Assembly: GCA_964505255.1 (NCBI GenBank)
Contig: CAZDHB010000002.1
Coordinates: 5,092 to 69,091, forward strand
Origin: an uncultured Porphyrobacter sp.
GTDB lineage: Bacteria > Pseudomonadota > Alphaproteobacteria > Sphingomonadales > Sphingomonadaceae
Length of the DNA stretch: 64,000 nt
Direction: 5' to 3'
The translations under genes and the position numbers were made by a program. Each line of letters starts with the position of its first letter. Position 1 is the stretch's first letter. The notes under the pieces were generated by a model. That model worked only from the letters and a program-made list of their open reading frames with translations, did not search any database and had not been told where the DNA came from. Of this stretch, positions 4,549 through 27,711 are shown one piece after another.

Positions 4549-4835
4549 GCGATCCGAAGGACTTCAATCTGCCCGAAGGGGCGCTCTTAGGCCAAGCACA
4601 GATTGACAATGTCGGACGAGCGCTGATCACTTTGATGCGCGAAGTCGCCGTGCTCAATGACCGGGTGCAGGTTCTAGAATGTCTGCTCGATAAGGAAGGG
4701 GTCATTGCGGCCGAAGCCGTCGACACCTTCCAAGGCGACGAGGCATTCCAGCAGCGCTCGGAACAGTCAATGGCCGCGATTGTGGGCAATGTGATGGCGG
4801 CGCTGCACGGTGCGGATGGCAACACAAGCCAATAG
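4545..4835 (+). CDS. Small helical hypothetical protein, methyltransferase-associated (paralog A)
   Basis: GTGA overlap with the methyltransferase stop. 15/34 identical to the 14338-14700 protein over the IDN...DRVxVLE..L...G segment. Confidence 0.75.
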   Translation: MSDPKDFNLPEGALLGQAQIDNVGRALITLMREVAVLNDRVQVLECLLDKEGVIAAEAVDTFQGDEAFQQRSEQSMAAIVGNVMAALHGADGNTSQ

Positions 4836-4924
4836 TCAAAGCGCCAAAGGACGCCGCGCAGGTACCTCGCTTTTGCTTCCGCCCCAGCAAGGGAGCGGCC
4901 AAGGCGACGAGGCTGAGCGATAGA

Positions 4925-5869
4925 ATGCGCAAACCAGCAATCTCCTCAACACTTATTGGTGCGGCCTTGGCGCTGTCTTCCTGCATCGCCGTTCCAAGCC
5001 CGGATACGGCTGCTCTTTCATGCGCAGCGAGGATGGCGGGGGCGCAAGCCTCGTTTGATCTGCACTTGAAGGCAAAGGATGGCAGGGACATTCCGGTCAC
5101 CGTTTTCCATCCAGATGAGCCGGGCACCTATCCAGTGATTGCTTTCTCGCACGGGGCATTTGCCGCTCCGAAGCGATACACAGCAATGCTGCGCCCGATG
5201 GCTGCAGCCGGTTTTATCATTGTTGCGCCCATGCATAGGGACAGCGAGGAAGCCGGGCTCGCAAGTCCGCCATCGCAAGAGGAAGTGTGGCTGACCCGCC
5301 ATGCAGATTTTGCAATCGCCCTGTCCAAACCTGATGCCATGGCCTCTGCCCTGGCGAGCCGGGCCATTGTGGCAGATGATGCCCCTCCCATCGCCATGGG
5401 CCACAGCTATGGCGCGATAATCGCTCAATTGAGTGCAGGCGCCCAAAGCCTGATGCCTGCAGGCCGCAGCGTTGATGCACCCTTGGATTTGCAAGCAGTG
5501 ATTGCATGGTCACCCCCAGGCGAGGCGAAAGGGATGATCGAGAATGCCGGATGGAGCACTATGGCAACGCCCAGCATGGTCCTGACGGGAACCACAGATA
5601 TTCTCCCCGGCTTTGTCGATGATTGGGAAGACCGAAAGGCCAGCTTCATCCATGCGCCGGCGGGGAACAAGGCTCTGTGGGTAGGAAACCGGATTGATCA
5701 CTATTTCGGCGGCATGTTTGGCAGGGTCAAACCTGCTGATGCAAATTCACAAGGTCTCATGCAGCGGGCGTTGGAACGATCGGTCCAGTTTCTCGACGAA
5801 AACACGGGCAGATATCCTGCTTGCAGCCTTGAGCCATCCTTTAATGGCGAGCAATTTGTCCAGGGCTGA
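4925..5869 (+). CDS. Alpha/beta hydrolase (chlorophyllase/PAF-AH-like fold), predicted lipoprotein
   Basis: FSHG oxyanion motif, GHSYG nucleophile elbow, candidate Asp (TTDILP) and His (IDHYFGG). Lipobox LSSC. Confidence 0.8.
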   Translation: MRKPAISSTLIGAALALSSCIAVPSPDTAALSCAARMAGAQASFDLHLKAKDGRDIPVTVFHPDEPGTYPVIAFSHGAFAAPKRYTAMLRPMAAAGFIIVAPMHRDSEEAGLASPPSQEEVWLTRHADFAIALSKPDAMASALASRAIVADDAPPIAMGHSYGAIIAQLSAGAQSLMPAGRSVDAPLDLQAVIAWSPPGEAKGMIENAGWSTMATPSMVLTGTTDILPGFVDDWEDRKASFIHAPAGNKALWVGNRIDHYFGGMFGRVKPADANSQGLMQRALERSVQFLDENTGRYPACSLEPSFNGEQFVQG

Positions 5870-6063
5870 AAAGTAAAGAGTCGCCTTTTCTCTGCTAGAA
5901 TAAATGGATGAGAATCACCGAAGAGCGGGGATTTTACATAAATCGGGCGGGTCTTGGGGCTACTTTACCCGCCAATCGGATAAAAATGGCATTTGTTTGC
6001 GCTGTAACATGCCTGCTCTTTGATGAATGGAGTACCGACATCAAGGGTAGGGAGTCATTTAAC

Positions 6064-8610: not shown

Positions 8611-9870
8611 ATGACCACTATTAGAGACATTATTCTTGCGCCAGCCAATGGAGCCTTCTTCTACGACGACCAAGCCGCGATCCGCTCCGGCTTGAAGCAG
8701 GATGGCTTCGACTACATCGGAAAACCCGTAACAGATGGCTTTGAGCGCATTCGTCAGCCATCAAGAGCGCTCAGCATTGGTCTGGTTCTTGACAATGGCT
8801 CCGTCGCCTGGGGCGATATGGTCAGCGTCCAATATTCAGGCGCTGCGGGGCGTGATCCATTGTTCGATCCCGAGAAAATTGCGGTGCTGGCCGACGATAT
8901 CCTGCGACCAGAGCTAATAGGGCGGCAGGCGGACGAGGTTCAAACAAATTGTGATGAGGTGCTGGACAAAGAGCGCCCATCGCCGCTCCCTTTGGCGGTG
9001 AAATATGGGCTAAGCCAAGCTTTGATAGCTGCGGCGGCTAACACCAAGCAATGCACCCCGGCCGAAATTGTCTGCGATGCATTTGGTCGCCCCTACCCTA
9101 CCGTGCCGATCCCCATCTTTGCTCAAAGCGGTGATGAGCGATATCTCAACGTTGACAAGATGGTGCTCAAGAAGGTCGATATCTTGCCGCACGGCCTGAT
9201 CAATTCAGCCGAAAAGTTCGGTCCCGAGGGCAGGACCTTTTCCGACTATGTGGAATGGGTCGCCAATCGCGCGACGCAGCTCGGTGGAGAAACTTACCGT
9301 CCCAAGCTGCATTTCGATCTCTATGGCTGGATTGGATTGGGAATCAGCGATGATCCAGAAAAAGTCGCCAGCTTTATCGCGCAATGCGCAGAAAAAGTTC
9401 CTTTGTTTGACCTGCTGATTGAGAGCCCAGTCGATTACGGCGAACGCTCGCTTCAGATCGAAAAATACGCCCAAATCGTAAGCGCGATGGAGCGGATTGG
9501 CACAAGCGCCAAAATCGTGGCGGACGAGCATTGCAATACACTTGGCGACATTCGCGATTTTTGTGACGCGAAAGCGGCGCATGTGATCCAAGTAAAAACG
9601 CCTGATGTTGGCAGCCTGCTCGATACGGCGAGCGCCATTCAATATGCCAAACAATCGGGCGTTGGAGCCTATTGCGGAGGGACGAGTGCAGAAACCGACG
9701 TATCAGCGCGCGCTTGCGTCCATGTCGCGCTTGCTATGCAGGCCAATATGATGCTCGCCAAACCGGGTATGGGCGTTGACGAAGCGATCTGTATTGTCGG
9801 CAATGAGCAAAGTCGCGCGCTGGCGCAGATCCGCTACAACACATCGGCGCAAGCGCGAAACAATGGCTGA
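8611..9870 (+). CDS. mal: Methylaspartate ammonia-lyase (enolase superfamily)
   Basis: MAL signatures WGD..VQYSGAAGRDPLF, FAQSGD, PHGLIN, HFDLYG, IESP, ADEHCN, QVKTPD and LAKPGMGVDE. Confidence 0.9.
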   Translation: MTTIRDIILAPANGAFFYDDQAAIRSGLKQDGFDYIGKPVTDGFERIRQPSRALSIGLVLDNGSVAWGDMVSVQYSGAAGRDPLFDPEKIAVLADDILRPELIGRQADEVQTNCDEVLDKERPSPLPLAVKYGLSQALIAAAANTKQCTPAEIVCDAFGRPYPTVPIPIFAQSGDERYLNVDKMVLKKVDILPHGLINSAEKFGPEGRTFSDYVEWVANRATQLGGETYRPKLHFDLYGWIGLGISDDPEKVASFIAQCAEKVPLFDLLIESPVDYGERSLQIEKYAQIVSAMERIGTSAKIVADEHCNTLGDIRDFCDAKAAHVIQVKTPDVGSLLDTASAIQYAKQSGVGAYCGGTSAETDVSARACVHVALAMQANMMLAKPGMGVDEAICIVGNEQSRALAQIRYNTSAQARNNG

Positions 9871-10987
9871 CCTTGACGGCATTACGGTCGTATCGATCGA
9901 ACAAGCGGTCGCAGCGCCCTATGCATCGATGCGGCTTGCAGCTGATGGCGCAAGGGTCATTAAGATTGAGCGGCCCGAGGGGGATTTCGCTCGGCGGTAT
10001 GACACTTTGGCTTCTGGCCAGAGCGCTTATTTTGTGTGGCTGAATGCAGGCAAGGAATCGATTTGCCTCGATTTGAAATTGGAGGAAGACAAATCCCTTC
10101 TGCTCCAAATCGTGAGCGAGGCCGATGTCGTCATACAAAATCTCAAACCGGGGACGATGGCCAAGCTCGGATTAGCAATCGATGATCTGCGCGCTCAGTT
10201 TCCCTCGCTCATAACCTGCTCGATTTCAGGTTTTGGCGAGGAAGGCCCCTTCGCCGATCTCAAGGCTTATGATCTGATTGTGCAAGCCGAAGCAGGCCTA
10301 TGCTCGATCACGGGCACCCAAGATGGTCCAGCGCGTGTGGGGGTGTCGGTGTGCGATATAGCCGCCGGAATGAGCGCCCATTCGGCAATTCTACAGGCGC
10401 TCTTCCACCGCGAACGAACCGGCGAAGGCAGCGCGCTTGAGGTATCGCTGTTCGATGCTTTGGCAGATTGGATGAACGTCCCTTACCTGCAGCATCGCTA
10501 TGGCGGATTTGAGACAAAGCGCAGCGGAGTGAACCATCCCTCACTCGCACCCTACGGGGCCTATCCAACGCGCGATGGCCGCAAGATCATCTTTTCAGTC
10601 CAAAACGAGCGCGAATGGGTCTGGTTTTGCGAGCATGTGATGGGCTCAAGCGATCTGGCCACGAACGAGCGTTTTGCCAACAACATGCTGCGGCTTGCCA
10701 ACCGCGAGATCTTGGATGACCTGATCAATGCAAGGTTCGCCCAGCTTGAAATGGATGAAGCTCTGGAACTGCTCAAGATATCCGGCTTGGCATGCGGCAG
10801 GCTGAACGGTGTTGCAGAATTGGCCAACCATCCGCATCTGCGAACACGCTCTGTGCTCTTCGATGGCGAGACTTTTGAAGTGATTGCTCCGGGTGTGCAA
10901 AAGAGCGGAGCTTTGCCAACGCAGCTTTCGGTACCCGTAAAAGATCAAGACGGTGCCAGCATCCGATTGCAGACCGCCAAGGGTTAG
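9863..10987 (+). CDS. Family III (CaiB/BaiF) CoA-transferase, possibly a mesaconate CoA-transferase
   Basis: EQAVAAPYAS..LA..GARVIKIERP.GD, NAGKES and YDLIVQAEAG motifs with the catalytic Asp region (VCDIAAG). ATG 9863 overlaps the mal stop. Confidence 0.88.
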   Translation: MADLDGITVVSIEQAVAAPYASMRLAADGARVIKIERPEGDFARRYDTLASGQSAYFVWLNAGKESICLDLKLEEDKSLLLQIVSEADVVIQNLKPGTMAKLGLAIDDLRAQFPSLITCSISGFGEEGPFADLKAYDLIVQAEAGLCSITGTQDGPARVGVSVCDIAAGMSAHSAILQALFHRERTGEGSALEVSLFDALADWMNVPYLQHRYGGFETKRSGVNHPSLAPYGAYPTRDGRKIIFSVQNEREWVWFCEHVMGSSDLATNERFANNMLRLANREILDDLINARFAQLEMDEALELLKISGLACGRLNGVAELANHPHLRTRSVLFDGETFEVIAPGVQKSGALPTQLSVPVKDQDGASIRLQTAKG

Positions 10988-11071: not shown

Positions 11072-11857
11072 ATGGAAAGAGGTGTCCCGGTACGCGCGAT
11101 TAGCCGAGGCTTCGCGGTCCTCTCGGCAGTGAGCCGTGATGGGCCGATTACTCTCATGGACATATCCCGCAGCGCAGATGTCCCCTACGCGACCGCTTGT
11201 CGGGTGGTCCAAACCTTGATGCACGAAGGCTTGATTGAGCGCGAAGTCGGCCGCAAAAAATATCGTGTGACAGCATTGGTCCAATCGCTGGCAACAGGCT
11301 TCCAGCAGGAGGATCTCCTCGCCGCAAAAGCACGGCCCCTCATGGAAGATCTGTGTCAGGAGGTCGGCTGGCCGATCTCCCTTGCAACGCGTGTGGGAAC
11401 GCGCATGATGGTGCGCGAATCCACTCACAAGATGACATCGCTCACTTTTACAAATTACTATCCCGGTTTCACCTTACCCATCGCAGAGTGCGCAACGGGC
11501 AAAGCCTATCTAGCCTATTGCGATGAAGACGAACGCGAGCGCATCCGCGACGCATTCGAGGCGACTGAAAGTGAGGCAGCTCGGACAGGGCTGGTGCTTT
11601 TGTCCGATGAAGGCGCCTTGCAGAATATCCGCACCGCCGGTTTTGCTTTGCAAGCGCGCAATCTCTACAATTTCGAGCCAGGCAAGACTTCCTCGATCGC
11701 GGTGCCGCTAACCGACACTGCGGGCGGCTTGGTGGGAACAATGGCGCTGATCTACTTCGCCTCCGCCATTAAGCCGCACGAGGCAGCCAATCAGTTCCTC
11801 GGCAAAATGCAGCACACGGCCACGCAAATCAGCTCCAGACTGGACGCTGCACAGTAA
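11072..11857 (+). CDS. IclR-family transcriptional regulator
   Basis: N-terminal HTH (VRAISRGFAVL...ATACRVVQTL..EGLI) and IclR effector domain (ATGKAYLA, SIAVPL). Confidence 0.9.
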   Translation: MERGVPVRAISRGFAVLSAVSRDGPITLMDISRSADVPYATACRVVQTLMHEGLIEREVGRKKYRVTALVQSLATGFQQEDLLAAKARPLMEDLCQEVGWPISLATRVGTRMMVRESTHKMTSLTFTNYYPGFTLPIAECATGKAYLAYCDEDERERIRDAFEATESEAARTGLVLLSDEGALQNIRTAGFALQARNLYNFEPGKTSSIAVPLTDTAGGLVGTMALIYFASAIKPHEAANQFLGKMQHTATQISSRLDAAQ

Positions 11858-14705: not shown

Positions 14706-15800
14706 ATGGACCGCGGTTCTATTGGCATCCTCCCTCGCCCGACCAAGCTCGCCGACGAAAGCTACCTTGAGTTCGTCACCTCCTTTCGAAAATTTGCGAT
14801 CCAGCGCGGTTTCCCCGTGATGGCCGCCAATGGCGAGGCTGAACTGGAACGCGCCATTGAAACAGGCGAAGTTGTGCGCCCCGATGATGGCAGCGACATT
14901 CCGCTGGATGAAGTCAAGAAAGTGTTCGGCAAAGTGCCCTTCACACCGACATGGCAGCGTTTTGTACGTTCCCAGCAGGAGATGATGTGGCGCGGCACGC
15001 GCAAAAGCTTTTTGCGCCAGGGCGAAGATTTGCTGAAGGCGATGGAAGAGGCGGAACAGTCCAATCCTGGCAACATCCATTACGAACCCGGCTTCGAACC
15101 ACCCAAATACACGCGCTGTGAAATTCACTGCCAGCCGGGCGGATACACTGATGACCCATTGGGCGGTGCCGTTTTCCATTACGGTACCAAGATCTTTTAC
15201 GAGGGCTTCAACGATCAGGACGAATTGCACATCGAGCTTGCTGAAAAAGCGACCAAGCCGGAAGATGGCAAGGTCGCCAACGTGCTCGATATCGGCTGCT
15301 CGATCGGGCAAGCGACAACGGTACTCAAGGATCTCTACCCAGAGGCTGAGGTGTGGGGTCTCGATGTGGGTCTGCCGCTGATCAAATATGCCCATATGCG
15401 CGCGACCGAGCGCGGCAAGGATGTGCATTTCAAGCAGGCACTAGCAGAGGACAGCGGCTTTACCGATGGCCAGTTCGATATGGTCCTCTCGTACATCCTC
15501 TTCCACGAAGTGCCGGTGAAGAAGATGAAGGAGATCATCGCCGAGACTTTCCGCGTGCTCCGCCCCGGCGGTATCTTCTCGATTTACGAGTTCCCCAACA
15601 ATAATGACGCAGTGAAAGTGAGCGACAGCCACCGCTTCATGATCGACAATGACAGCCGCGACAATTGCGAACCCTATTCGCCCGCTTTTGTCGCCTCGGA
15701 CTTTAAAGGCATTTTGGAAGAGGCGGGGTTTGTGGTCGAACCGGGCCCCGGTCTCACCAATACATTCTTGCAATCATTGGTCGCGCGCAAACCCGCCTAA
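14706..15800 (+). CDS. Class I SAM-dependent methyltransferase (paralog B)
   Basis: VLDIGCSIG, GLD, QFDMVLSYILFHEVP and RVLRPGG. Clearly homologous to 3502-4548. Confidence 0.85.
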   Translation: MDRGSIGILPRPTKLADESYLEFVTSFRKFAIQRGFPVMAANGEAELERAIETGEVVRPDDGSDIPLDEVKKVFGKVPFTPTWQRFVRSQQEMMWRGTRKSFLRQGEDLLKAMEEAEQSNPGNIHYEPGFEPPKYTRCEIHCQPGGYTDDPLGGAVFHYGTKIFYEGFNDQDELHIELAEKATKPEDGKVANVLDIGCSIGQATTVLKDLYPEAEVWGLDVGLPLIKYAHMRATERGKDVHFKQALAEDSGFTDGQFDMVLSYILFHEVPVKKMKEIIAETFRVLRPGGIFSIYEFPNNNDAVKVSDSHRFMIDNDSRDNCEPYSPAFVASDFKGILEEAGFVVEPGPGLTNTFLQSLVARKPA

Positions 15801-15803
15801 AGG

Positions 15804-16964
15804 TCAAACGCCCAGCAGAGGGGTGGTTGAGGGATCATAGGCGAAGATGCCAAGCGCGTCCTCGTCCTTGATCGGCGTATCGCGGAACATGTCAGGATCA
15901 ATCGCTTGCAAGCGATCGCCGCCCAAATTGCTTTCGCGCTGGAGCATCGAGGCGCGCTCGATCCGCGTGGCGACATAGCAATCGAGTGCCTTGTCCAGAT
16001 CATCACATTGCGCAAACGCGCGGCCGATTATGACCCCATCCTCAATCGCGCAGCCTGCCCCTTGCCCCATATAAGGCAGCATGGGATGCGCGGCATCGCC
16101 CAACAGCACGGTGCGCCCCTTGCGCCATTCGCTGAGCGGTTCGCGGATGAAAAGGCCCCAACAAAACAGCTCCTCTTCCGGGATCTGAGCCAACAGCTCT
16201 TGCACATAAGGCGGAAAGCCCTCGTATTTTGCAAGCAGCTGGGCCTTGTCCGCCTTGACCGCCCAGCCTTCCTCGACCCAGTCATCGGCCTTGGATAAGG
16301 CCACGACATTGATCAATTCGCCCTTGCGAACGGGATAGCTCACAATGTTCTTGCCGAAAGCAAGGTGATTGATGTTGAGCGCCTCACTCGCCCGCGATGT
16401 CACTGTGCCGGCCGGAATAAGTCCGCGATAAGCAAGATGTCCGCTGAACTGCGGCTCGCCAGTTTCAAACAGCGCGCCGCGCACAACCGAACGCAGCCCA
16501 TCAGCGGCAATCGCGATATCCACCTCGGCAACCTCGCCATTGGCAAAGCTGAGCGTAACGCCGTCATCGCGCGATGTGATGCCGGCAAGATCACAATCCA
16601 TCCGGCAATTCTCTACGCCAAAAGCCGCGATGAGCGCAGCGAGCAAATCCGCGCGGTGGAACTGCAGATAAGGCGCCTTGTAACGCTCTCGCGTGTTGCG
16701 CCGCTCAATCGCCTGCAGCAATTCCCCCGTTACGCCGTGGCAAAGATGCTGTTCAAGCGGTTCATTCGCTTCAGATTCGAGAAATTCGCCGAGCCCCAGC
16801 GAGCGCAGCCCCAGCACGGCATTGGGCGACATCGAAATTCCTGCGCCCACCTCGCCAAATTCGGGCGCTCGCTCGTAGAGCGTCACGTCCTGTCCCGCTT
16901 TGCGCAAGGCAATTCCAGCAACCAGGCCGCCAATGCCGCCGCCAATAATCGCAATCTTAGTCAT
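15804..16964 (-). CDS. Group A flavin monooxygenase (salicylate hydroxylase/6-hydroxynicotinate 3-monooxygenase-like)
   Basis: IIGGGIGG, DG motif (AADGLRS) and GD motif (LLGDAAHPMLPYMGQG). Confidence 0.88.
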   Translation of the reverse strand: MTKIAIIGGGIGGLVAGIALRKAGQDVTLYERAPEFGEVGAGISMSPNAVLGLRSLGLGEFLESEANEPLEQHLCHGVTGELLQAIERRNTRERYKAPYLQFHRADLLAALIAAFGVENCRMDCDLAGITSRDDGVTLSFANGEVAEVDIAIAADGLRSVVRGALFETGEPQFSGHLAYRGLIPAGTVTSRASEALNINHLAFGKNIVSYPVRKGELINVVALSKADDWVEEGWAVKADKAQLLAKYEGFPPYVQELLAQIPEEELFCWGLFIREPLSEWRKGRTVLLGDAAHPMLPYMGQGAGCAIEDGVIIGRAFAQCDDLDKALDCYVATRIERASMLQRESNLGGDRLQAIDPDMFRDTPIKDEDALGIFAYDPSTTPLLGV

Positions 16965-18565
16965 GGGTCTTTCCCCCCTAATCCGAGCGCTCCGGGATTG
17001 AGAATGCCATGCGGATCGAGCTGAGCTTTCAGCGACTTGATAAATCCTAAGACTGGTTCGGCCTTTGTCTCGGCATAGGGATACATCCGCCCGATCTGGA
17101 AATGGGTCGCGCCGTGACTCCGCATCAAAGCAATGATTTCGGCAATCATGGACTGTGCAAGCTCGCGCCCTGTCAGGTTCTCGGGATATTCTGGCAAGCC
17201 TGCGAGATAATCAGGCGTCATCCGCGCGTGGTATTCATAGCGTGTATCGGGCCAGTAAAACACTGGCTCGTAAAGAAAGCCGCTCCCCGTGATACCAGCA
17301 AAAAACTCTGCGATGGTCATGCCGCACTGAGCCATTTGTTCCGCATATCGGCCTTTCAATGCAAGATAGTCGTGGTGGAAATCCTGCATGGCATCGGGCG
17401 CAAAAATCCCGTGCACCGGCACCATACGGCGGCCATCCGGGTGAGTGACGGGAAGCGCCGGAAACGGATCAGCGCGCATCATCAAGGGCACAGTGTTGAC
17501 GATTTCATTGCCGCCTTTGGCAAGGCTCCGCAGCGCTTTGACCTTGCTCGCAACATCTTTCGCATCGCGCCCTTCGATGACAAAATGAGCGGTGTAGGTC
17601 GCTTGGTCCATGAATCTGCGGCCGCCCATAGCTACCCGCGCCATCCGGCCAATTGCGGCAAGGGGATTGCCTGCTGATACGCCCACTTTCCAAAGCGATT
17701 TCAAATCACTGACAAGATTGGGAGGACCCGCATTCTGGCGCGCAAAATCTGCATCCATTGCCGTATATTCGCTCACCAGACGGCGCTGCGACACTTCACC
17801 GAAAAAGGCCGCCATGGCGGAAAAATCGTCAAACGCGAAGGATAGCCCGGTCACCTTTGCAGGGCGCGGTTCGATTTCCAAAGTAACCGCGGTTTTGATC
17901 CCCAGCGCGCCTGCATCATTGGCGAAAATGCCTGTGAGATCAGGACCGAAATGCCGGTTAAAGGGCTGCGTTCCATCTGAGCCGTCCGAGCCGGTTTTGA
18001 GCACTTCGCCCGAACCGGTCACGATCTCAAAGCTCTTCACTGCATTGGCAGATGCGCCTGCCTGCCCTGAGCCGAATGTCACCGATCCTTGGCTAAGCGA
18101 GCCGCCCAATGTCGCTGTTGCGCCCGACATGGGGCCCCAGAAACGCGCGCGCATGCCAGCCTTTGCAAGCGCTGCATCAAGCTTGGCCCAAGTGCATCCC
18201 GCCCCTGCGCTGACATAGTCGCGGCGAGCCGATATCTCGCCAATCCAATCAAGCCCGCCCGTATCGAGGACAATTGACTTGGCCCCGCGCGGTTGGAAGG
18301 CATCAGTGTACGACATCCCTCCACCGCGGGGAAAGATTGCAAGATCATGCTCGGCGCACAGTTTAACCAGAGCTTGAACATCGGCGCTTGAGCGTGGACG
18401 CACCACCGCTAGGGGCAAATCGCCTTCAAAAAATAGGTCTTGTGAGAAAAACCTTCGTTCGTGTTCCTCGGTCACAACACAGGCTTCACCAAGTGCCTTG
18501 GCAATCACCGCCAGCACAGGGTCTGCAGAAAATTCGGTTGCGGACTGATGCAAAACCATACCCAC
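16961..18565 (-). CDS. FAD-linked oxidase/dehydrogenase (VAO/PCMH, D-2-hydroxyacid dehydrogenase-like fold)
   Basis: FPRGGGMSY PP-loop, ATLGG, GALGI and C-terminal DPHGILNPG. Start is GTG 18565 or ATG 18559. Confidence 0.82.
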   Translation of the reverse strand: MGMVLHQSATEFSADPVLAVIAKALGEACVVTEEHERRFFSQDLFFEGDLPLAVVRPRSSADVQALVKLCAEHDLAIFPRGGGMSYTDAFQPRGAKSIVLDTGGLDWIGEISARRDYVSAGAGCTWAKLDAALAKAGMRARFWGPMSGATATLGGSLSQGSVTFGSGQAGASANAVKSFEIVTGSGEVLKTGSDGSDGTQPFNRHFGPDLTGIFANDAGALGIKTAVTLEIEPRPAKVTGLSFAFDDFSAMAAFFGEVSQRRLVSEYTAMDADFARQNAGPPNLVSDLKSLWKVGVSAGNPLAAIGRMARVAMGGRRFMDQATYTAHFVIEGRDAKDVASKVKALRSLAKGGNEIVNTVPLMMRADPFPALPVTHPDGRRMVPVHGIFAPDAMQDFHHDYLALKGRYAEQMAQCGMTIAEFFAGITGSGFLYEPVFYWPDTRYEYHARMTPDYLAGLPEYPENLTGRELAQSMIAEIIALMRSHGATHFQIGRMYPYAETKAEPVLGFIKSLKAQLDPHGILNPGALGLGGKDP

Positions 18566-18678
18566 TTTCTACTCGGCTTGGACAAGCCTAAACGAGTCAC
18601 GCGGGTAAGCCTATCCGATAGATGGTCACAAGGGGCAGTTCGCATGCAGCAATTGCGCGCAAGAGCCTAACAGAGGGT

Positions 18679-20034
18679 ATGGCTTCGCAAGCAATCTCTT
18701 CCGCTGAGGCGGCTGAAACAGGCGGAAACTCGCCCGTCTACAGCTGGTTTGTGGTGGGGGTTCTCTCGCTTGCAGGGATTGTGAGTTATATCGACCGCCA
18801 AGTGATCAACCTGCTGGTCGAGCCGATCAAGGCCGATTTAGGGGTTTCCGACTTACAGATCAGCCTGCTCCAAGGGTTTTCTTTCGCGCTTTTCTACGCC
18901 GTTTTGGCAGTTCCTCTCGCTTGGATTGCTGACCGCCATAATCGCAAACTGGTGATCCTATTTGGCCTTGTGTGCTGGTCGGCCGCGACTTTTGCCAGCG
19001 GGCTGGCGATGGCATTTGCTTTTTTGTTCGCAGCGCGCATGTTGATTGGCGTGGGCGAGGCGACACTCTCACCCGCTGGCTTCTCAATAATCAGCGACTA
19101 CTTTGCCAAAGATAAGCTGCCCGGCCCGATCAGCGTGTTTACCGGCAGCAGCTTTATCGGATCCGGACTGGCGCTGATCCTGGGCGGATATCTGTTTGCC
19201 ACATTGAGCGAAATGGGTCCGACCACGCTGCCCTTCGGCACATTCCAACCTTGGCAGCTCACTTTCATGTGCGTGGCGATGTTGAGCCTGCCGGTGTTCT
19301 TTCTGCTTCTGCTTGTTCGCGAGCCAGCACGGCGCGACGGGAACGCAATGGCCGCACAGGATGAAAGCCCGCCTGCCTTTGAGGTCGTGGGCTTCGTAAG
19401 GGCCAATGGAGCCGTGTTCTATCCGCTGTTCATCGGGTTTTCCTGCCTTGCTGGCGCGCAATATGGGCTGGGGGCATGGGTCCCCAGCTATTTCATCCGG
19501 GTGCATGAGTGGACGCAGCTAGAGGTAGGGCAAATATACGGCCCTGTTGTTATGATTGCTGGCCCCTTGGGCGTCATTGCCGGCGGCTTTGTCGCTGAGC
19601 GATTGCTTGCAAAAGGCGTGGAGGATGCGACCTTACGGCTGCCCATTTATGCCATTCTTGCCGCTTTGCCGTTTGCGATCGCGTTTCCCCTTGTCAGCTC
19701 GCCGATGTTGGCGCTTGGCCTGCTCGCAGCTCTCTTGGTGTTGGGGACAATCCCCTTCGGCGCCGGCGTCGCCACCTTCCCGCTCATCACACCCAACCGC
19801 ATTCGCGCGCAAGTGATGGCGGTCTATCTGCTGATCGCCAACCTGCTAAGCTACTCAGCAGGGCCGACCTTGATTGCGGCTCTCACCGACTACGTATTCG
19901 CTGATGAATCGGCCATCAACCTGTCGCTGGCGATCGCAACGCCGGCTGCAATGATTGCTGGCATCGTGTTTCTATTTCTCGCCCTTCGCCCCTATCGCGA
20001 TATGGCGCAATCGCATTCCCACGGAGAAAAATAA
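18679..20034 (+). CDS. MFS transporter (spinster/ACS-like)
   Basis: SYIDRQVINLLVEPIKADL, motif A (WIADRHNRK), RMLIGVGEA and about 12 TM segments. ATG 18679 after GAGGG. Confidence 0.88.
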   Translation: MASQAISSAEAAETGGNSPVYSWFVVGVLSLAGIVSYIDRQVINLLVEPIKADLGVSDLQISLLQGFSFALFYAVLAVPLAWIADRHNRKLVILFGLVCWSAATFASGLAMAFAFLFAARMLIGVGEATLSPAGFSIISDYFAKDKLPGPISVFTGSSFIGSGLALILGGYLFATLSEMGPTTLPFGTFQPWQLTFMCVAMLSLPVFFLLLLVREPARRDGNAMAAQDESPPAFEVVGFVRANGAVFYPLFIGFSCLAGAQYGLGAWVPSYFIRVHEWTQLEVGQIYGPVVMIAGPLGVIAGGFVAERLLAKGVEDATLRLPIYAILAALPFAIAFPLVSSPMLALGLLAALLVLGTIPFGAGVATFPLITPNRIRAQVMAVYLLIANLLSYSAGPTLIAALTDYVFADESAINLSLAIATPAAMIAGIVFLFLALRPYRDMAQSHSHGEK

Positions 20035-20036: not shown

Positions 20037-21515
20037 ATGGCTTTGATTGACCTTCTGCCCGACACCAACACCTTTGTAGCCAAGGATAAGAAAGTGCTGA
20101 TCGGCGGCACTTGGTCCGACGCCAAGAGCGCGGATCTGATCGATATTGTGAACCCTTCGGATGGCGCGCGCCTTTCCGGCCTTGCCGATGCGAGCGCGGC
20201 CGATGTCGACGCGGCTGTCTTGGCAGCGCGCAAAGCTTTCGACGAAGGGCCTTGGCCGCTGATGAAACCGGGCGAACGTGCGGCCATGATCCACGCTTTG
20301 GCCGACATTATGGCCGCTCACCACGAGGAGCTAGCCCAGCTCGAAACGCTTGATACGGGAAAGCCCATTAATTCATCGCGCGGCGAGGTTTTCGCAGCCA
20401 TTGGCGCGATCCGCTACTTTGCTGGATGGGCCGACAAGATCACCGGCACCACGCACAATATCAACATGCCGGGCGATCACCATGTCTACACGCTCAAAGA
20501 GCCGGTCGGTGTCGCTGCCCTCGTCGTGCCTTGGAATTACCCGATTGTGATGGCTGCGATGAAATTGGGGCCCTGTTTGGCTGCTGGTTGCACAGCCGTG
20601 CTCAAACCGGCCGAAGACACTTCGCTCACAGCCTTGCGTTTGGGAGAGCTGTTTTTGGAAGCGGGCCTGCCCGAAGGCGTTCTCAACATCGTCACAGGTT
20701 ACGGCGCGACAGCGGGCAACGCCCTCATCCACCACAAGGGGATCGACAAGATCGCCTTCACCGGATCGACAGTGACTGGCAAGGTCATCGCGCATGCGGC
20801 GGCAGAGAATTTGAAGAAAGTCAGCCTTGAGCTAGGCGGCAAATCACCCAATATCATCATGCCTGATGCAAATCTGGAGGCGGCTATTCCCGCCTCTGCC
20901 ATGAGCATTTTCTGGAACACAGGCCAGACCTGCACCGCTGCCTCGCGCCTCTATGTGCACGAGGATATCAAGGATGAAGTGATCGCTGGCGTCGCTGAGG
21001 TTGGCAAGTCGCTGAAGCTTGGTGCGGGGCTTGACGAAGAGACCCAGATCGGCCCGATTGTCTCGGAGAAGCAATTCGACAAGGTGCAAGACTATATCGA
21101 GCTTGGAGCAAGCGAAGGGGCTGAAATCGCCTCGGGCGGCAAGCGTCATGGCAATTCCGGCTTTTTCATCGAGCCGACGGTGATTGCGAACACCACCAAT
21201 GATATGCGCGTCGTACGCGAAGAGATTTTCGGACCTGTCCTCGTCACCCAAACATTCAAAACCGAGGATGAAGCCATCGCATTGGCCAATGACAGCGATT
21301 ATGGCCTCGCAGGCTCTGTTTGGACGGGTGATGTTGCGACCGCGCACCGAATGGCGCGCCGGATCAAAGCGGGCATTATCGGGATCAACAATGCGTCTGG
21401 CGCGGATTGGGACGTTCCCTTGGGCGGATATAAGCAATCGGGCGTTGGCCGCGAAAATGGCCGCGACGGTCTGGAGCTTTACCTCCAAACCAAGTCGGTT
21501 TTCACCACGCTGTAA
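20037..21515 (+). CDS. NAD(P)-dependent aldehyde dehydrogenase
   Basis: PWNYP, KPAE, FTGST, LELGGKSP, catalytic Cys (GQTCTA) and EEIFGPV. Confidence 0.95.
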   Translation: MALIDLLPDTNTFVAKDKKVLIGGTWSDAKSADLIDIVNPSDGARLSGLADASAADVDAAVLAARKAFDEGPWPLMKPGERAAMIHALADIMAAHHEELAQLETLDTGKPINSSRGEVFAAIGAIRYFAGWADKITGTTHNINMPGDHHVYTLKEPVGVAALVVPWNYPIVMAAMKLGPCLAAGCTAVLKPAEDTSLTALRLGELFLEAGLPEGVLNIVTGYGATAGNALIHHKGIDKIAFTGSTVTGKVIAHAAAENLKKVSLELGGKSPNIIMPDANLEAAIPASAMSIFWNTGQTCTAASRLYVHEDIKDEVIAGVAEVGKSLKLGAGLDEETQIGPIVSEKQFDKVQDYIELGASEGAEIASGGKRHGNSGFFIEPTVIANTTNDMRVVREEIFGPVLVTQTFKTEDEAIALANDSDYGLAGSVWTGDVATAHRMARRIKAGIIGINNASGADWDVPLGGYKQSGVGRENGRDGLELYLQTKSVFTTL

Positions 21516-21519
21516 TCCC

Positions 21520-22332
21520 ATGCCAGAAGCGATCCCTACCCAGATCCAGCGCATCGACGTTGGTGATGCTGAAATCCACACAGAGATAACCGGCAGCGGA
21601 CCAGATTTGCTGCTGGTTGCTGGGCTTGGCGGACGCGGCGCATTTTGGCACAAACAAGTCCAGACCTTTGCGCAGCATTTCCGCGTCATCACTTTCGATC
21701 ATCGCGGCTGCGGTGAGAGCACGCCGGACAAGGTCGTCTATGGCGCAGAGCACATGGCGAAAGACGTGCTTGCGCTGATGGATTCGATGGAGATTGAATG
21801 CGCGCGTCTTGTCGGCCATTCGACAGGCGGCGCCATTGGCCAGCATATCGCTCTCAAACATCCCGAGCGGCTGAAACAGCTGGTGCTTTCTTGCAGTTGG
21901 GCCGGACCTGACACTTACCTCACCGAACTGTTTCGAACGCGGCGCGAAGTGCTGATCAGCTGCGGTCCGCTCGCCTATCTGACCATGGGCACTTATCTCG
22001 CCATGCCGCCACGCGCGCTGCAAGAACAGATGAGCGATGCGCGTGCGTTTATGGAAGAGCGGCTCGCTGCCTTCCCCGGCCTTGAGGTCGAGCTATCGCG
22101 CATCAATGCGGTCTACACCCACGATCTGCGCAGCGAGCTTCATAAGATCGCCGTGCCAACTTTATGCATCGGTGCAGAGAATGATGGCATAACCCCGCCC
22201 GGTTTTACCGAGGAGATGGCGCGGCTGATCCCTGATGCGGAGCTGCATCTGCTGCACTCAGGTGGACATTTCTGCCCGATCGCCGCGACCGACGAGTACA
22301 ACCCTCGTGTGCTTGAATTCCTCAACGGCTGA
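21520..22332 (+). CDS. Alpha/beta hydrolase, RutD/amide hydrolase-like
   Basis: LVAGLGG, DHRGCG, GHSTGG nucleophile elbow, AENDGITP and GGHF. ATG 21520 directly follows the ALDH stop (the track start 21184 overlaps ALDH). Confidence 0.8.
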   Translation: MPEAIPTQIQRIDVGDAEIHTEITGSGPDLLLVAGLGGRGAFWHKQVQTFAQHFRVITFDHRGCGESTPDKVVYGAEHMAKDVLALMDSMEIECARLVGHSTGGAIGQHIALKHPERLKQLVLSCSWAGPDTYLTELFRTRREVLISCGPLAYLTMGTYLAMPPRALQEQMSDARAFMEERLAAFPGLEVELSRINAVYTHDLRSELHKIAVPTLCIGAENDGITPPGFTEEMARLIPDAELHLLHSGGHFCPIAATDEYNPRVLEFLNG

Positions 22333-22347
22333 CCAAGGAGAACACTG

Positions 22348-22866
22348 ATGACATCTGAACCTGTCCACCCTCCCTTTGGCCATATTACCAAGGGGCGATC
22401 CGTCGTCGTGGGTCCGGACGAGGGGCGCAGCCTATGGCAACCCATGCCCAGCCGCGGCTATGTCAATGTGAACCTGACGGCAGACAACATGCCTTACGAC
22501 ACATGGTCTTCAGGCACACAGGTGATGCCCCCGGGCTGTATGGTGCGCGAGCACGGACACAAGCAGAACCATGAGTTGGTGTTTGTCTATGAGGGCACGG
22601 GCGAGTGCGATATTGACGGCGAGCTCCACCAATTGGAGCCGGGCACCACTGTCCTTTTCGCGCGCAATTGCACCCATTGGATCAAGAACACGGGCGATAC
22701 GGACATGAAGATGTTCTGGGTCTTCTTTCCGCCAGGTCTTGAAGACTGGTTCTATGCCATCGGCAAAGACCGCACACCGGGCGAGCCGATGCCCGAGCCG
22801 TTCGACCGCCCTGACAATGTGAAGGAGGTGCAAGACAAAATGCGCTTCCTTCCTCCCCGCAGCTAA
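22348..22866 (+). CDS. Cupin-domain metalloprotein
   Basis: Cupin motif 1 (HGH..NHELVFVYEG) and motif 2 (GTTVLFARNCTHWIKN). SD AAGGAG. Confidence 0.85.
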   Translation: MTSEPVHPPFGHITKGRSVVVGPDEGRSLWQPMPSRGYVNVNLTADNMPYDTWSSGTQVMPPGCMVREHGHKQNHELVFVYEGTGECDIDGELHQLEPGTTVLFARNCTHWIKNTGDTDMKMFWVFFPPGLEDWFYAIGKDRTPGEPMPEPFDRPDNVKEVQDKMRFLPPRS

Positions 22867-22881
22867 AGACCACCAACGCCC

Positions 22882-23880
22882 ATGCGTATTATCCCTCAAT
22901 CCGAGGTCGAACGCCTCTTGCCCGTTGGCGCCTGTGTCGATGTCATGCGGCAGGCCATGATCGCGGTAAGCCAAGGCGACGTGACCCTGCCAATCCGTCA
23001 ATTCATGCCGGTGCCCGGAGCAGCAGGCAAAATGGCGATTATGCCCGGCTCGCTTGGCACAGCAAAGCAAACACACGATGCGAGTTTTGGGATCAAGCTG
23101 GTATGCAAATACGAGCGGCCTCAAGATGATCCGCTCGGCACACATGTGGGCATGGTTATCCTGTTCGACAGCGCAAAAGGCGTACCGCTAGCGATGATCG
23201 AGGGGTCCTCCCTCACCGCCATCCGAACGTCTGCCGCCAGCGCGCTCGCCGCGCAATTGATGGCGCGCGAAGATGCAGCACGCCTCGCGATCCTGGGGAA
23301 TGGCGAGCAAGCCGCACGCCATGTCGATGCAATGATGGCTGTCCGCGATATCTCGGAAATAACTGTATGGGGCCGCGATCCGGCACGCGCTGAGGCTTTT
23401 GCTCGAGCGACAGCCGAGCGGGTCGGACTGCCCGTCCAAACCGCCCCTACAGTGAGCGAGGCTGTCGCGGACGCAGAGATCATTTGCACCACCACTTCCG
23501 CGAAAGAACCGATCTTGCACGGCGCTGACCTCAAACCCGGTCAACATATCAATTTGGTTGGCGCGGCCATTCCGACAAGCGCCGAGGTCGATTCCGAAGC
23601 AGTCGCGCGCAGCCGCTTTGTGGTCGATTACCGCCCCGCTGCCATGGCAGCAGCCGGTGAGCTGCTAAACGCGATTAAGGACTCAAGCGTTACCGAGGCG
23701 CATATCGCTGGCGAGATAGGGGAAATTGCAGCGGGCAAAATTCCGGGACGCAGTTCGCCGGATGACATCACCCTATACAAATCGCTTGGCGTCGCCGCGC
23801 AGGATTTGGCCGCAGCGCATGCTTTGTGGACTTTGGCAGAGCAAGAAAGCAGCGGGATCGAGGTTGATCTGCTTGCCTAA
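22882..23880 (+). CDS. Ornithine cyclodeaminase/mu-crystallin family protein (imine reductase or C-N lyase)
   Basis: LTAIRTSAAS, ILGNGEQA Rossmann motif, ICTTTSA and TLYKSLGVAAQDLAAA. Confidence 0.9.
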   Translation: MRIIPQSEVERLLPVGACVDVMRQAMIAVSQGDVTLPIRQFMPVPGAAGKMAIMPGSLGTAKQTHDASFGIKLVCKYERPQDDPLGTHVGMVILFDSAKGVPLAMIEGSSLTAIRTSAASALAAQLMAREDAARLAILGNGEQAARHVDAMMAVRDISEITVWGRDPARAEAFARATAERVGLPVQTAPTVSEAVADAEIICTTTSAKEPILHGADLKPGQHINLVGAAIPTSAEVDSEAVARSRFVVDYRPAAMAAAGELLNAIKDSSVTEAHIAGEIGEIAAGKIPGRSSPDDITLYKSLGVAAQDLAAAHALWTLAEQESSGIEVDLLA

Positions 23881-25335: not shown

Positions 25336-26316
25336 TCAATGTGCGCCGACTTTCTTGTGATCGGGCGAAACTTCTTTGGAGGACAATTCTCCGGCGTCTT
25401 CCTTCTCCTTCATCTTCTTGAAGGTATCGAACTCATTGACGCCGCCCATTTCGCGTCTCGGCCAGCGTGTTGCAAATCCGCGTGGATAGCGGCTGTCATC
25501 ATCCTTTCGCCCGTCTTCTGACCAGATCAGCGGGAAGAGATCACCTTCTGGTTTTTCTCCGTCGAGCATCTCGTCAAAGCTAACGCCAGCGATATTCAAA
25601 CAGTCAGGGCGCGGCGCCCAGCGGATGTCATCACCAAACACGCGCTGCGAGACAGCGATGCGGTAATCATCGGTAGGATTGCCTGCCGAATAGTGCAGCA
25701 CCCACGGGTTCACGACCAGCATATCGCCCGGCTCCATTTCCCATTGCAGGAAGCGCAAGCCGTCCTCGCCGCGGCGGCTCTCGATATCGGGATGCGGTAC
25801 GCGATCGTCTGGTTTGATCATCTTGCGCGCATTGGGGCTGAAGAGCCAATACGGCACATCGTCATTCTGAGTGCCCGCCAGCACTTCGAGGCAGTTCTCT
25901 TTTACAATCGGTGTGAGCGGTATCCAAAGGGATGGCACCATTTTTCCTGCCACCGGAAATGCCATGCGATCGCAATGCCACAAGGTGGCAGCGTCCGATT
26001 GCGGCGGCTTGGCAAAAAACTCATCGAAGAAGAAACGGATTTCCTTCGATTGCATGACCCGCCCGGCCGCCTCGGCGATGGGACTTTCAAAAACCATCCG
26101 CCGATATTCGGGAATGCAACGCGCCATGTACCGGCCGGGAATTGTGGGGAGGAGGCCGACGTCCTTCTTTTCGACAATAACCTCGCGTGCGACAGGCTCG
26201 AGCATCTCGATCCAGTCCTTGTCGAGCACTTTGCGCAAGCACACAGCGCCATCGCGATTGTAGGCATCGATATCGTCCTGCGTGATCTCACGTAGGGGGC
26301 GCGAATTGAGCGGCAT
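25336..26316 (-). CDS. Phytanoyl-CoA dioxygenase (PhyH)-family Fe(II)/2-oxoglutarate oxygenase
   Basis: HxD (WHCD), SLWIPL, MEPGD.L distal His (VLHYSAGN) and downstream Arg (YRIAVS). Confidence 0.85.
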   Translation of the reverse strand: MPLNSRPLREITQDDIDAYNRDGAVCLRKVLDKDWIEMLEPVAREVIVEKKDVGLLPTIPGRYMARCIPEYRRMVFESPIAEAAGRVMQSKEIRFFFDEFFAKPPQSDAATLWHCDRMAFPVAGKMVPSLWIPLTPIVKENCLEVLAGTQNDDVPYWLFSPNARKMIKPDDRVPHPDIESRRGEDGLRFLQWEMEPGDMLVVNPWVLHYSAGNPTDDYRIAVSQRVFGDDIRWAPRPDCLNIAGVSFDEMLDGEKPEGDLFPLIWSEDGRKDDDSRYPRGFATRWPRREMGGVNEFDTFKKMKEKEDAGELSSKEVSPDHKKVGAH

Positions 26317-26493: not shown

Positions 26494-27711
26494 GTGGAGA
26501 GAGTTTTGAAAGAATACCGCACCAAAGTTGTTGTTGCAGGTGCTGGCCCCGTCGGTAGCGTCGCGGCCTATCTACTTGCGCAGCAAGGCATAGAGGTTGT
26601 CCTAGCCGAAGCGCAAAGCGATTGCGCACTCGACCTGCGCGCCTCAACTTTCCATCCACCTACGCTGGAAATGCTCGATGATTTCGGGATCACCGAGAAG
26701 CTAATTGAGCTTGGCCTCAAGGCCCCAATATACCATTTCCGTGAACGTCAATCGGGCGACGTGATCGACTTCGACCTGTCAGAAATTTCGGACCTCACCC
26801 GTTTTCCTTACCGCGTACAATGCGAGCAATACCACCTTTCTCGCATGCTTTCCGAAGCGGTAAGCGATGCGCGCGGAGCAGAAGTTCTGCGCAACCACCG
26901 TGTCATTGGATATGAACAGGATGGCGACGGTGTCTCGGTTTATGTCGAAAGCTCTACCGAAATTGTCAAAATTCGCGCTGATTTTCTGATCGGTGCTGAT
27001 GGCTCTAACTCGATGGTCCGCAAATGGATGGGCACCGGCTTTGATGGCTTCACCTATCCGGAGCGCTTTCTTTGCTACACCTCGAAAGTCCCGCTTGAAG
27101 AGCGGCTCGAAAATCTGAGCTACGTCAATTACGTCTCTGACCCCGAAGAGTGGATGGTGCTGCTGCGTGTTCCCTCCTTGTGGCGTATCCTCGTGCCTGC
27201 AACAGAGAACATGAGCGATGAAGAGCTGAAGGGCGATGCGAAAAAGGTTGAGGTATTTGACCGGCTTTTGGGCGACGGCGAAAGTGTCGAAACCGTCCAT
27301 CGCACGGTCTATCGCGTGCATCAACGAGTGGCAAAGAGCTTTGTCGACAGGCGCGTGGCAATCATTGGCGATGCAGCGCATCTCAACAATCCGATCGGCG
27401 GGTTCGGTATGAACAGCGGTATCCATGATGCATTCAATCTGTGCGAGAAAATGGACGCCATTTACAATCATGGCCGGGATGCCGAAAACGCGCTTGGTCT
27501 GTTTGATCGTCAGCGTCGCAAAACCACGCATGATTTCATTCAGGCCCAGACGATCAAGAACATGGAATTTTTGTCAGATGGTGCAGGAAAGCTGCATGAG
27601 AAGCGGAAGGCCGAGTTCCTCGCGATCAAGGCCGACCCCACAAAACGCCGTGAGTTTCTTCGGCGCCAAGCAATGATCCAATGTTTGGAAGACGAGAAGG
27701 CCATAGCTTAA
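26494..27711 (+). CDS. Group A flavin monooxygenase (MhpA/phenol hydroxylase-like)
   Basis: VAGAGPVG, IGADGSNS and IIGDAAHLNNPIGGFGMNSGIHDAFNL. Start is GTG 26494 or TTG 26506. Confidence 0.88.
   Translation: MERVLKEYRTKVVVAGAGPVGSVAAYLLAQQGIEVVLAEAQSDCALDLRASTFHPPTLEMLDDFGITEKLIELGLKAPIYHFRERQSGDVIDFDLSEISDLTRFPYRVQCEQYHLSRMLSEAVSDARGAEVLRNHRVIGYEQDGDGVSVYVESSTEIVKIRADFLIGADGSNSMVRKWMGTGFDGFTYPERFLCYTSKVPLEERLENLSYVNYVSDPEEWMVLLRVPSLWRILVPATENMSDEELKGDAKKVEVFDRLLGDGESVETVHRTVYRVHQRVAKSFVDRRVAIIGDAAHLNNPIGGFGMNSGIHDAFNLCEKMDAIYNHGRDAENALGLFDRQRRKTTHDFIQAQTIKNMEFLSDGAGKLHEKRKAEFLAIKADPTKRREFLRRQAMIQCLEDEKAIA

Follow-up and report, generated by a model that had tools for sequence, protein, structure and literature searches.

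A conserved hydrolase–cupin–OCD gene module, linked to a mutase-less methylaspartate ammonia-lyase in marine Erythrobacteraceae, that may end in an aspartate-type amino acid

The window analysed here is a stretch of 64,000 nucleotides (nt) from an uncultured Porphyrobacter sp. (assembly GCA_964505255.1, contig CAZDHB010000002.1, positions 5,092 to 69,091 of the forward strand; genome 2.76 Mb, 94.8% complete), and its subject is an operon that couples a putative ring-opening cupin to an enzyme of the OCD/mu-crystallin family. Open reading frame (ORF) listing together with Pfam and NCBIfam scans places five genes head to tail, all on the plus strand: an MFS_1 transporter of the anion:cation symporter type as the first gene (18622..20034; Pfam MFS_1, 143 bits), an NAD(P)-dependent aldehyde dehydrogenase (ALDH; 20037..21515; Pfam Aldedh, 584.6 bits; best NCBIfam match the StyD/BADH type, under the cutoffs), a RutD-like alpha/beta hydrolase of 270 amino acids (21520..22332), a monocupin of 172 amino acids, putatively a metal-dependent ring-opening dioxygenase (22348..22866; Cupin_2, 64 bits), and the OCD-family NAD(P)-dependent enzyme, a putative imino-acid reductase or amino-acid dehydrogenase (22882..23880; PF02423). 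The intergenic gaps are 2 nt between the transporter and ALDH genes, 4 nt between ALDH and hydrolase, and 15 nt on either side of the cupin gene. An earlier note made from this DNA had described four co-oriented genes spaced 4-15 nt apart behind an MFS transporter, and the ORFs, the family scans and the sequence itself all confirm that layout. The 5' end of the operon is 56 nt from a divergent pair encoding a VAO-type flavoprotein and a flavin monooxygenase (FMO), its 3' end is 12 nt from a convergent glutathione S-transferase (GST) gene, and a promoter and terminator scan gave signals at or below chance level.

To follow the operon in other organisms, species-representative genomes were scanned with the OCD protein, giving 45 loci onto which the proteins of the window were then mapped. 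The order methyltransferase / FMO–VAO / MFS–ALDH–hydrolase–cupin–OCD is common to about 15 Erythrobacteraceae/Parasphingorhabdus genomes and to marine metagenome contigs, and the arrangement is therefore not due to chance; in related loci the MFS gene keeps its place ahead of ALDH, with 66-78% identity, and the close homologues of the OCD protein carry the names Erythrobacter, Altererythrobacter and Parasphingorhabdus. An uptake and esterase block, the GSTs, a PhyH-family oxygenase and a second FMO travel with the operon in varying arrangements, so that the whole set constitutes one accessory island, and in other genomes the uptake and de-conjugation genes lie directly downstream of the OCD gene. 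The distribution is sporadic: only 3 of 150 sampled genomes of the family have the cupin–OCD pair, and a sampled genome of the same genus lacks it.

The hydrolase, cupin and OCD genes recur together in some 35 marine and freshwater loci. Distant versions (G134, G048, an Acidibacter contig and freshwater metagenome contigs) retain these three genes while the surroundings are swapped for a LysR regulator, PhyH, a GMC oxidoreductase, an ICL-like paralogue, an MFS transporter and an ACS/PrpE-like ligase, sometimes with no ALDH, VAO or FMO gene, and because the triad is kept while its neighbours change we regard it as the conserved core. The PhyH gene adjoins the triad in L030, L086 and L087 and is close by in L068 and L069. 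ALDH is present in the marine and in some freshwater loci and absent from L086, L087, L068, L069, L081 and L085; it is a variable upper part of the module that lies outside the core. Literature searches returned no paper describing this gene combination, and the hydrolase–cupin–OCD module appears to be undescribed so far.

Fold and genomic context both point to the cupin as a good candidate for an O2-dependent ring-opening step. It has a two-motif 3His/1Glu metal site, H69, H71, E76 and H110, that is invariant in 16 homologues with 33-47% identity to the query. The best full-length fold match of its AlphaFold (AF2) model (pLDDT 91.5) is the Ni-quercetinase QueD (5FLH; TM score 0.74 over 163 columns, E 1e-10), C-terminal helices included, and the domains of B. 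subtilis YxaG also match, with sequence identity to quercetinases of only 18-19%. The family is rare (one match in 400 sampled genomes of the phylum) and has no named relatives in the protein atlas clusters, which hold 'cupin domain protein' only; NCBIfam and PDB sequence searches with the cupin and its bicupin relatives gave weak matches alone, to gentisate, 5-aminosalicylate and quercetin dioxygenases. With an alignment of five cupin sequences 80 metagenome loci were fetched. An HpaB-family flavin monooxygenase is encoded no more than 4 kb from 33 of the 64 cupins that are more remote (38-57% identity), in most cases just ahead of the cupin. Neighbours of other remote cupins include a Rieske LigXa-like oxygenase or a group-A FMO, homologues of the FMO flanking the cupin in L104 and L142, and about 12 of the cupins adjoin a hydrolase gene. 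A hydroxylase followed by a cupin is the usual signature of O2-dependent ring cleavage, and it is on these grounds that the cupin becomes a candidate ring-opener and that the ring-opening role given to it in the earlier note has gained in weight. On soil, freshwater and marine metagenome contigs (L092-L155), HpaB directly followed by the cupin forms a widespread pair of its own, sometimes as HpaB–hydrolase–cupin, with no OCD or aspartate dehydrogenase gene near it.

The hydrolase, for which the mechanical ORF begins at a TTG at 21184 inside the ALDH gene, starts, as judged from the sequence, at the ATG at 21520. Its best NCBIfam match is RutD (TIGR03611), at 181.5 bits against a cutoff of 238.5 and hence short of equivalog membership, and RutD also appears among its PDB matches (3v48, E 3e-26). 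With the nucleophile motif GHSTGG and candidate Asp and His residues seen in the sequence, the Ser-His-Asp triad looks intact, and the protein is well described as the RutD-like hydrolase that it had been called.

The third protein of the core matches PF02423 over residues 6-315 at 230.9 bits (gathering score 24) and is encoded by the sole gene of this family in the genome. It has a candidate Rossmann dinucleotide motif, G139-N-G-E-Q-A, and R39, K72 and R115 stand where P. putida OCD would lead one to expect the Arg/Lys/Arg carboxylate-binding triad. Its best PDB match is the delta1-pyrroline-2-carboxylate reductase 6t3e (E 4e-49) and its best NCBIfam model that of the pyrroline-2-carboxylate/piperideine-2-carboxylate (Pyr2C/Pip2C) reductases, NF004793, on which its 245 bits fall below the equivalog cutoff of 322; on the model of the iminosuccinate reductase BhcD, NF045643, it reaches 167.1 bits against a cutoff of 500 (PDB 6rqa, E 8e-28). 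The missed BhcD cutoff lowers the case for the protein being a BhcD and not the case for its working like one.

A separate line of argument, independent of these scores, comes from loci in which the OCD gene is replaced. In all seven PLSDB plasmid records examined, and likewise on an alphaproteobacterial chromosome (G227) and a metagenome contig (L151), homologues of the cupin and adjoining RutD-like hydrolases (33-38% identical to that of the window) are accompanied by an aspartate dehydrogenase (AspDH) in place of the OCD gene. The plasmids come from Neorhizobium, two Mimosa-nodulating Paraburkholderia (symbiosis plasmids), Paracoccus versutus, Shinella and Rhizobium spp.; the AspDH of G227 scores 196.7 on NF009828, above the cutoff of 177, and a comparison of the OCD and AspDH sequences detected no similarity. 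A maximum-likelihood tree of 107 cupins joins the OCD-linked clade (35 rows, 99/90) as sister (94/98) to a clade with the AspDH-linked rows (100/94) and leaves the HpaB-linked cupins outside both, and the OCD gene is no more than 4 kb from the cupin in 32 of the 35 OCD-linked rows, the other three being short contigs or having a contig end near the cupin. Two unrelated NAD(P) enzymes have, in other words, been recruited to one cupin–hydrolase pair. To our knowledge the interconversion of iminosuccinate and aspartate is the sole reaction known in both families, through BhcD in the OCD family and the NadX type among AspDH, and the non-homologous displacement therefore supports an aspartate-type role for the OCD protein. 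The enzyme would act in an aspartate-type imine or amino-acid step, with neither its role nor its direction fixed by the displacement, and to that extent the imine/amino-acid role earlier suggested for it is supported by an independent genomic argument. Partners found with both module types are GMC oxidoreductases, KstD/Frd-superfamily flavoproteins and a family III CoA-transferase; the cupin has KstD-like flavoproteins beside it in Neorhizobium, G227 and R. ruizarguesonis.

Several of the AspDH-type loci (L158, which is P. phenoliruptrix pSym, L159, L161, L162 and L163) have a conserved operon of their own, which runs proline-racemase-family protein, GMC or FAD oxidoreductase, cupin, RutD-like hydrolase and AspDH, and which in Paraburkholderia adjoins hydroxyproline-type genes (DHDPS-family and ALDH). 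The proline-racemase-family neighbours have a Ser/Cys active-site pair, not Cys/Cys or Cys/Thr. Such an operon may oxidise a cyclic imino acid to aspartate by a route that has yet to be described.

Upstream in the same island, the window encodes a methylaspartate ammonia-lyase (MAL; 8611..9870, plus strand; MAAL_N 166 bits, MAAL_C 317.6 bits) that matches the Citrobacter enzyme 1KKO at 365 bits. Judged by its sequence it is a canonical MAL: conserved in the alignment to 1KKO are the motifs taken to hold Q73, F170, Q172, H194, D238, E273, D307, Q329, K331, Y356 and L384, which supply the catalytic bases, the Mg ligands, the amine pocket (Q73/Q172) and the alkyl pocket (F170/Y356/L384). A Ser replaces Cys361 of the Citrobacter and Clostridium enzymes (GGTC to GGTS). 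The next gene encodes a family III CoA-transferase (9776..10987, plus strand; CoA_transf_3, 338 bits) with similar scores on the oxalate, succinate-glutarate and mesaconate CoA-transferase models. As listed, its ORF overlaps the end of MAL by 95 nt; because the Pfam match begins only at residue 33, the true start is probably near 9870, at the MAL stop codon.

The glutamate mutase E subunit (PF06368) has no match in the 94.8%-complete genome, and another source of 3-methylaspartate is therefore needed. MAL is present in 13 of the 15 other OCD-bearing genomes (14 of 15 with a syntenic island) and in none of 150 sampled genomes of the family, and the distance between MAL and the OCD gene is 2-16 kb in at least nine genomes, which show three different arrangements. 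In the locus L015, from an Erythrobacter metagenome-assembled genome, the genes for a TonB receptor, MAL, the hydrolase, the cupin, OCD and an ACS-like ligase follow one another on one strand, with MAL directly upstream of the hydrolase.

These observations lead us to propose, with a probability of about 0.4, that the island handles an oxidised N-containing ring carboxylate and that its triad ends in an aspartate-type amino acid which feeds MAL. Gene order, conservation, family memberships, the metal site, the displacement of OCD by AspDH and the co-occurrence with MAL are observed, and from this material we infer the chemistry of every step, the methyl group and the reductive direction of the OCD enzyme. 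According to the model, VAO/GMC-type flavoproteins, a group-A monooxygenase and the PhyH oxygenase would prepare the N-containing ring carboxylate, and the QueD-like cupin would open the ring with O2 beside the nitrogen. The RutD-like hydrolase would then take off an N-acyl or N-formyl group, or hydrolyse an enamine, and ALDH, where present, would oxidise an aldehyde to a second carboxylate. The OCD enzyme, with NAD(P)H, would trap the unstable imino- or enamino-dicarboxylate, of the iminosuccinate type, as an aspartate-type amino acid. The product in those marine Erythrobacteraceae that have MAL would probably be 3-methylaspartate, which MAL and the CoA-transferase would convert to mesaconate and a CoA ester.

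The claims made within this scheme differ in strength. The operon most likely serves to open an oxidised N-containing ring, its last enzyme producing an amino acid of the aspartate type. It is doubtful, though conceivable, that hydrolase–cupin–(OCD or AspDH) forms an undescribed module that opens a heterocyclic or enaminone carboxylate by oxidation and recovers its nitrogen, together with four carbons, in an amino acid of the aspartate type, and that, being mutase-free, it gives marine Erythrobacteraceae the first B12-independent biological source of 3-methylaspartate, which would explain the orphan MAL. A role for the operon as a B12-independent source of 3-methylaspartate is plausible but unproven. 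The earlier note had assembled just such a mutase-free route from ring opening, amide hydrolysis, aldehyde oxidation and imine reduction; the cupin, the hydrolase, the aspartate-type role of OCD and the co-occurrence with MAL stand in its favour, whereas ALDH falls outside the core and the 3-methyl group finds no support.

A number of observations weigh against the proposed scheme. The OCD protein scores higher on the Pyr2C/Pip2C models than on BhcD (245 against 167 bits), below both cutoffs, similarity between cupin folds is generic, and we found no characterised close relatives of the triad enzymes. MAL-bearing genomes form a single marine clade on the cupin tree, and the co-occurrence may reflect one ancestral gain followed by loss in Parasphingorhabdus, not many independent events. 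The triad occurs without MAL in G080, G134, G048, G154, the freshwater contigs and all AspDH-type loci; conversely, MAL homologues (52-57% identity) are found on Mesorhizobium and Sinorhizobium plasmids in clusters that have neither cupin nor OCD, and no plasmid has both MAL and the triad. The association with mal by which the OCD hypothesis was to be checked thus stands as a count (13 of 15 genomes against 0 of 150) and is loosened by triads and MAL modules that occur apart. Since MAL and the CoA-transferase are found away from the triad, they behave as a portable methylaspartate-utilisation module, one that became attached to the island in Erythrobacteraceae. Lastly, genes for an ICL-like lyase and an ACS-like ligase widely accompany the OCD gene, and this company is no less compatible with an oxidative role for OCD, converting an amino acid into a 2-oxo acid, than with a reductive one.

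An oxidative scheme built on that last point, which we consider unlikely, would have the cupin and hydrolase already set free a substituted aspartate that is saturated, an N-formyl derivative being one conceivable precursor, and the OCD enzyme act as an oxidative (3-methyl)aspartate dehydrogenase; a product of the 3-methyloxaloacetate type would pass to an ICL-superfamily enzyme for cleavage or decarboxylation and then to an ACS/PrpE-like ligase, with MAL as a parallel, optional outlet. The window has a PrpB/DMML-like lyase of this superfamily (13320-14195, minus strand); oxaloacetate hydrolases and oxaloacetate/3-methyloxaloacetate decarboxylases belong to the superfamily, and 3lye and 3b8i are among the PDB matches. 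ICL-like and ACS-like genes stand beside hydrolase–cupin–OCD in marine and freshwater loci without MAL (listed are L028, L029, L068, L069, L081, L085, L087, L088, L090 and L015), and the AspDH-type module of Neorhizobium has a 2-oxoacid dehydrogenase E1/E2 set after it. A dedicated dehydrogenase is, however, less obviously needed for a stable amino acid than for the trapping of an unstable imine, OCD and MAL would be redundant within one island, and the AspDH-type loci have no ICL-like or ACS-like genes.

The scores of the OCD protein suggest another scheme that we likewise hold to be improbable, in which it is a Pyr2C/Pip2C-type reductase or a cyclodeaminase acting on pyrroline or piperideine carboxylate and shares with MAL nothing but the island. 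The match to 6t3e and the rank of NF004793 among the family models speak for it, as does the presence of proline-racemase-family genes ahead of the cupin in five of the seven AspDH-type plasmid loci. Set against this are the score, 245 bits, short of the equivalog cutoff, the displacing AspDH family, for which we know of no reduction of cyclic ketimines, and the annotated ORFs of the window's island, among which no proline-racemase gene was found.

The PhyH-family Fe(II)/2-oxoglutarate oxygenase of the island (25336..26316, minus strand; PhyH, 66 bits) raises a further prospect, which we judge to be slim. Its sole clear PDB relative is MysH (E 2e-22), with the next matches near noise, and MysH is an Fe/2OG enzyme that N-dealkylates mycosporine-like amino acids in their biosynthesis (PMC10666671). 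If mycosporine-like amino acids were the substrate, the MysH-like oxygenase would dealkylate the chromophore, the QueD-like cupin would cleave the alpha-oxygenated enaminone ring with loss of CO, and the hydrolase would free the amino acid; the oxidase and ALDH would turn a hydroxymethyl group into a carboxylate, so that the ICL-like lyase would receive a citrate-like compound, and OCD would take the N-substituted amino acid or imine. In favour of this reading, the PhyH gene accompanies the OCD-type triad in other loci, the island also encodes esterases, a TonB receptor and an MFS_2 transporter of the glycoside type, marine and freshwater samples are the source of the contigs, and a literature search found no catabolic pathway for these compounds. 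This account, whose chemistry is our own, nevertheless depends on one distant homology (83 bits), gives the methyltransferases no role, and explains neither MAL nor the AspDH and proline-racemase contexts of the sister clade.

Very improbable, finally, is an N-free aromatic pathway (C-ring cleavage of flavonols, or vanillate to methoxyhydroquinone followed by ring fission and ester hydrolysis) with OCD unrelated or moonlighting: the quercetinase-like cupin fold, the resemblance of the FMO to decarboxylative vanillate/4-hydroxybenzoate hydroxylases, and a VAO-type oxidase, ALDH, GSTs and esterases that suit routes for lignin- or flavonoid-derived compounds would fit it, but the close and recurrent pairing with an amino-acid dehydrogenase, drawn from either of two unrelated families, speaks against it, as does the linkage to MAL.

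Returning to the route that ends in an aspartate-type amino acid, its logic would resemble that of known pathways and would differ from them in joining a QueD-like cupin dioxygenase to an imine-reductase or amino-acid-dehydrogenase end step. Quinaldine and alkylquinolone degradation uses the Moq/AqdB flavin 3-hydroxylase, the Hod/AqdC 2,4-dioxygenase and the Amq/AqdA amidase, and so shares a group-A flavin hydroxylase, O2-dependent opening of an N-heterocycle next to the nitrogen and an alpha/beta-hydrolase-type amidase on the N-acyl product; its dioxygenase, in contrast, is a cofactor-free alpha/beta-hydrolase fold and not a metal cupin, its product is anthranilate, and it has no imine reductase and no MAL. 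In monocupin size, C-terminal helices and full-length fold the window cupin is closest to the Streptomyces enzyme QueD, whose 3His/1Glu site is at equivalent positions, whereas its genomic partners are amino-acid dehydrogenases and RutD-like hydrolases and not flavonoid genes. BhcD and the NadX-type AspDH provide the iminosuccinate/aspartate chemistry for the two families that alternate beside the cupin and hydrolase; unlike in the beta-hydroxyaspartate cycle, BhcA, BhcB and BhcC genes are absent, and the regulator is a generic IclR (65 bits on the BhcR model, cutoff 350). The NicC–NicX–NicD and Rut pathways offer a parallel in a NicC-like hydroxylase (E 1e-50) and in a hydrolase for a ring-opened N-formyl or enamine product, RutD being the nearest curated family, but NicX-type dioxygenase, NicF, NicE, RutA, RutB and RutC are absent here and the hydrolase stays under the RutD cutoff. 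With the methylaspartate pathway and cycle, which pair glutamate mutase with MAL, the island has in common a family III CoA-transferase placed after a MAL whose catalytic and pocket residues are conserved; it differs in having no glutamate mutase, an aerobic host, and a MAL embedded in an oxidative catabolic island.

Some candidate substrates could be set aside. The pathways for pyridoxine, nicotinate, trigonelline, ectoine and histamine and the microcystin mlr genes depend on defining enzymes that are missing here, and a tetrapyrrole or maleimide substrate would give no mono-methyl aspartate skeleton. Homarine catabolism is ruled out because the published hom operon uses other protein families and yields N-methylglutamate (PMC13236597).

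Rhizobial and Paraburkholderia symbiosis plasmids carry the module as well, soil and freshwater metagenomes also contain it, and such a wide distribution makes it probable that its substrate is a widespread natural nitrogen compound whose turnover is missing from metabolic maps. Mutase-less MAL genes recur in aerobic Alphaproteobacteria, and we know of no one who has found where their substrate comes from; one of them is now tied to a defined, conserved gene module. Among cultured organisms, Altererythrobacter sp. GH1-8, A. lutimaris JGD-16 and Erythrobacter sp. W53 carry it, which makes the question directly testable.

MAL also occurs in settings that are quite different. On Mesorhizobium amorphae pM0123d (L164) and S. 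meliloti pC (L165) a mutase-less MAL cluster comprises MAL, a CaiB-type CoA-transferase, a CoA-ester lyase, a LysR regulator, ALDH, a class I fumarate hydratase, an Lrp regulator and an aminotransferase, preceded in Mesorhizobium by M20 and M24 metallohydrolase genes, and it may represent another route of methylaspartate supply. In the related metagenome-assembled genome G158 (C9:120262-121506) a MAL match lies in a 738-amino-acid open frame with one in-frame TGA, for which a fusion, a frameshift and an artefact of assembly are conceivable explanations.

The remaining genes of the island surround the operon on both sides. Of the divergent pair, the VAO/PCMH-type FAD oxidase (16961..18565, minus strand; FAD_binding_4, 103 bits) has weak PDB matches to glycolate and D-2-hydroxyacid dehydrogenases and to vanillyl-alcohol and eugenol oxidases; its gene is syntenic in all marine loci and is replaced or accompanied by a GMC oxidoreductase in L068 and L086-L090. 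Its neighbour, a group-A flavin monooxygenase and putative hydroxylase (15804..16964, minus strand; FAD_binding_3), matches tropone 2-monooxygenase (E 4e-58), 6-hydroxynicotinate 3-monooxygenase (the NicC-like match noted above) and vanillate 1-hydroxylase. Beyond it lies a syntenic gene for a SAM-methyltransferase-fold protein with an N-terminal extension (14706..15800, plus strand; Methyltransf_25/11), with a small partner ORF directly upstream. On the other side of the operon are the convergent GST gene, of the Nu-class YfcG-like type (23893-24582, minus strand; GST_N; NF010579, 204.9 bits), a second GST gene (24579-25313, minus strand; GST_N) and, past the PhyH gene, a second group-A flavin monooxygenase, again syntenic (26494..27711, plus strand; FAD_binding_3, 185.5 bits). 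Between the CoA-transferase and lyase genes, family scans identify an IclR-family regulator (11072..11857, plus strand) and a soluble Frd/TcuA/KstD-superfamily flavoprotein (11860-13272, minus strand). The uptake and de-conjugation block (726..8514, plus strand) encodes a beta-lactamase-fold hydrolase, an MFS_2/GPH transporter, a methyltransferase with its partner, a chlorophyllase/PAF-AH-like hydrolase and a TonB-dependent receptor.

Two genes of related islands in L072, L073 and L015 are missing from the equivalent part of the window: one for an ACS/PrpE-like CoA ligase and one for a Zn-dependent alcohol dehydrogenase, which sit either immediately past the OCD gene or in the interval from the methyltransferase to the Frd-like flavoprotein. 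A few kilobases downstream of the catabolic island the window has photosynthesis-cluster-type genes (30151-33350, minus strand), among them a class I/II aminotransferase-fold gene that we read as hemA, DUF3623, and a rubrerythrin-family gene that is presumably acsF. In non-phototrophic relatives the island sits elsewhere.

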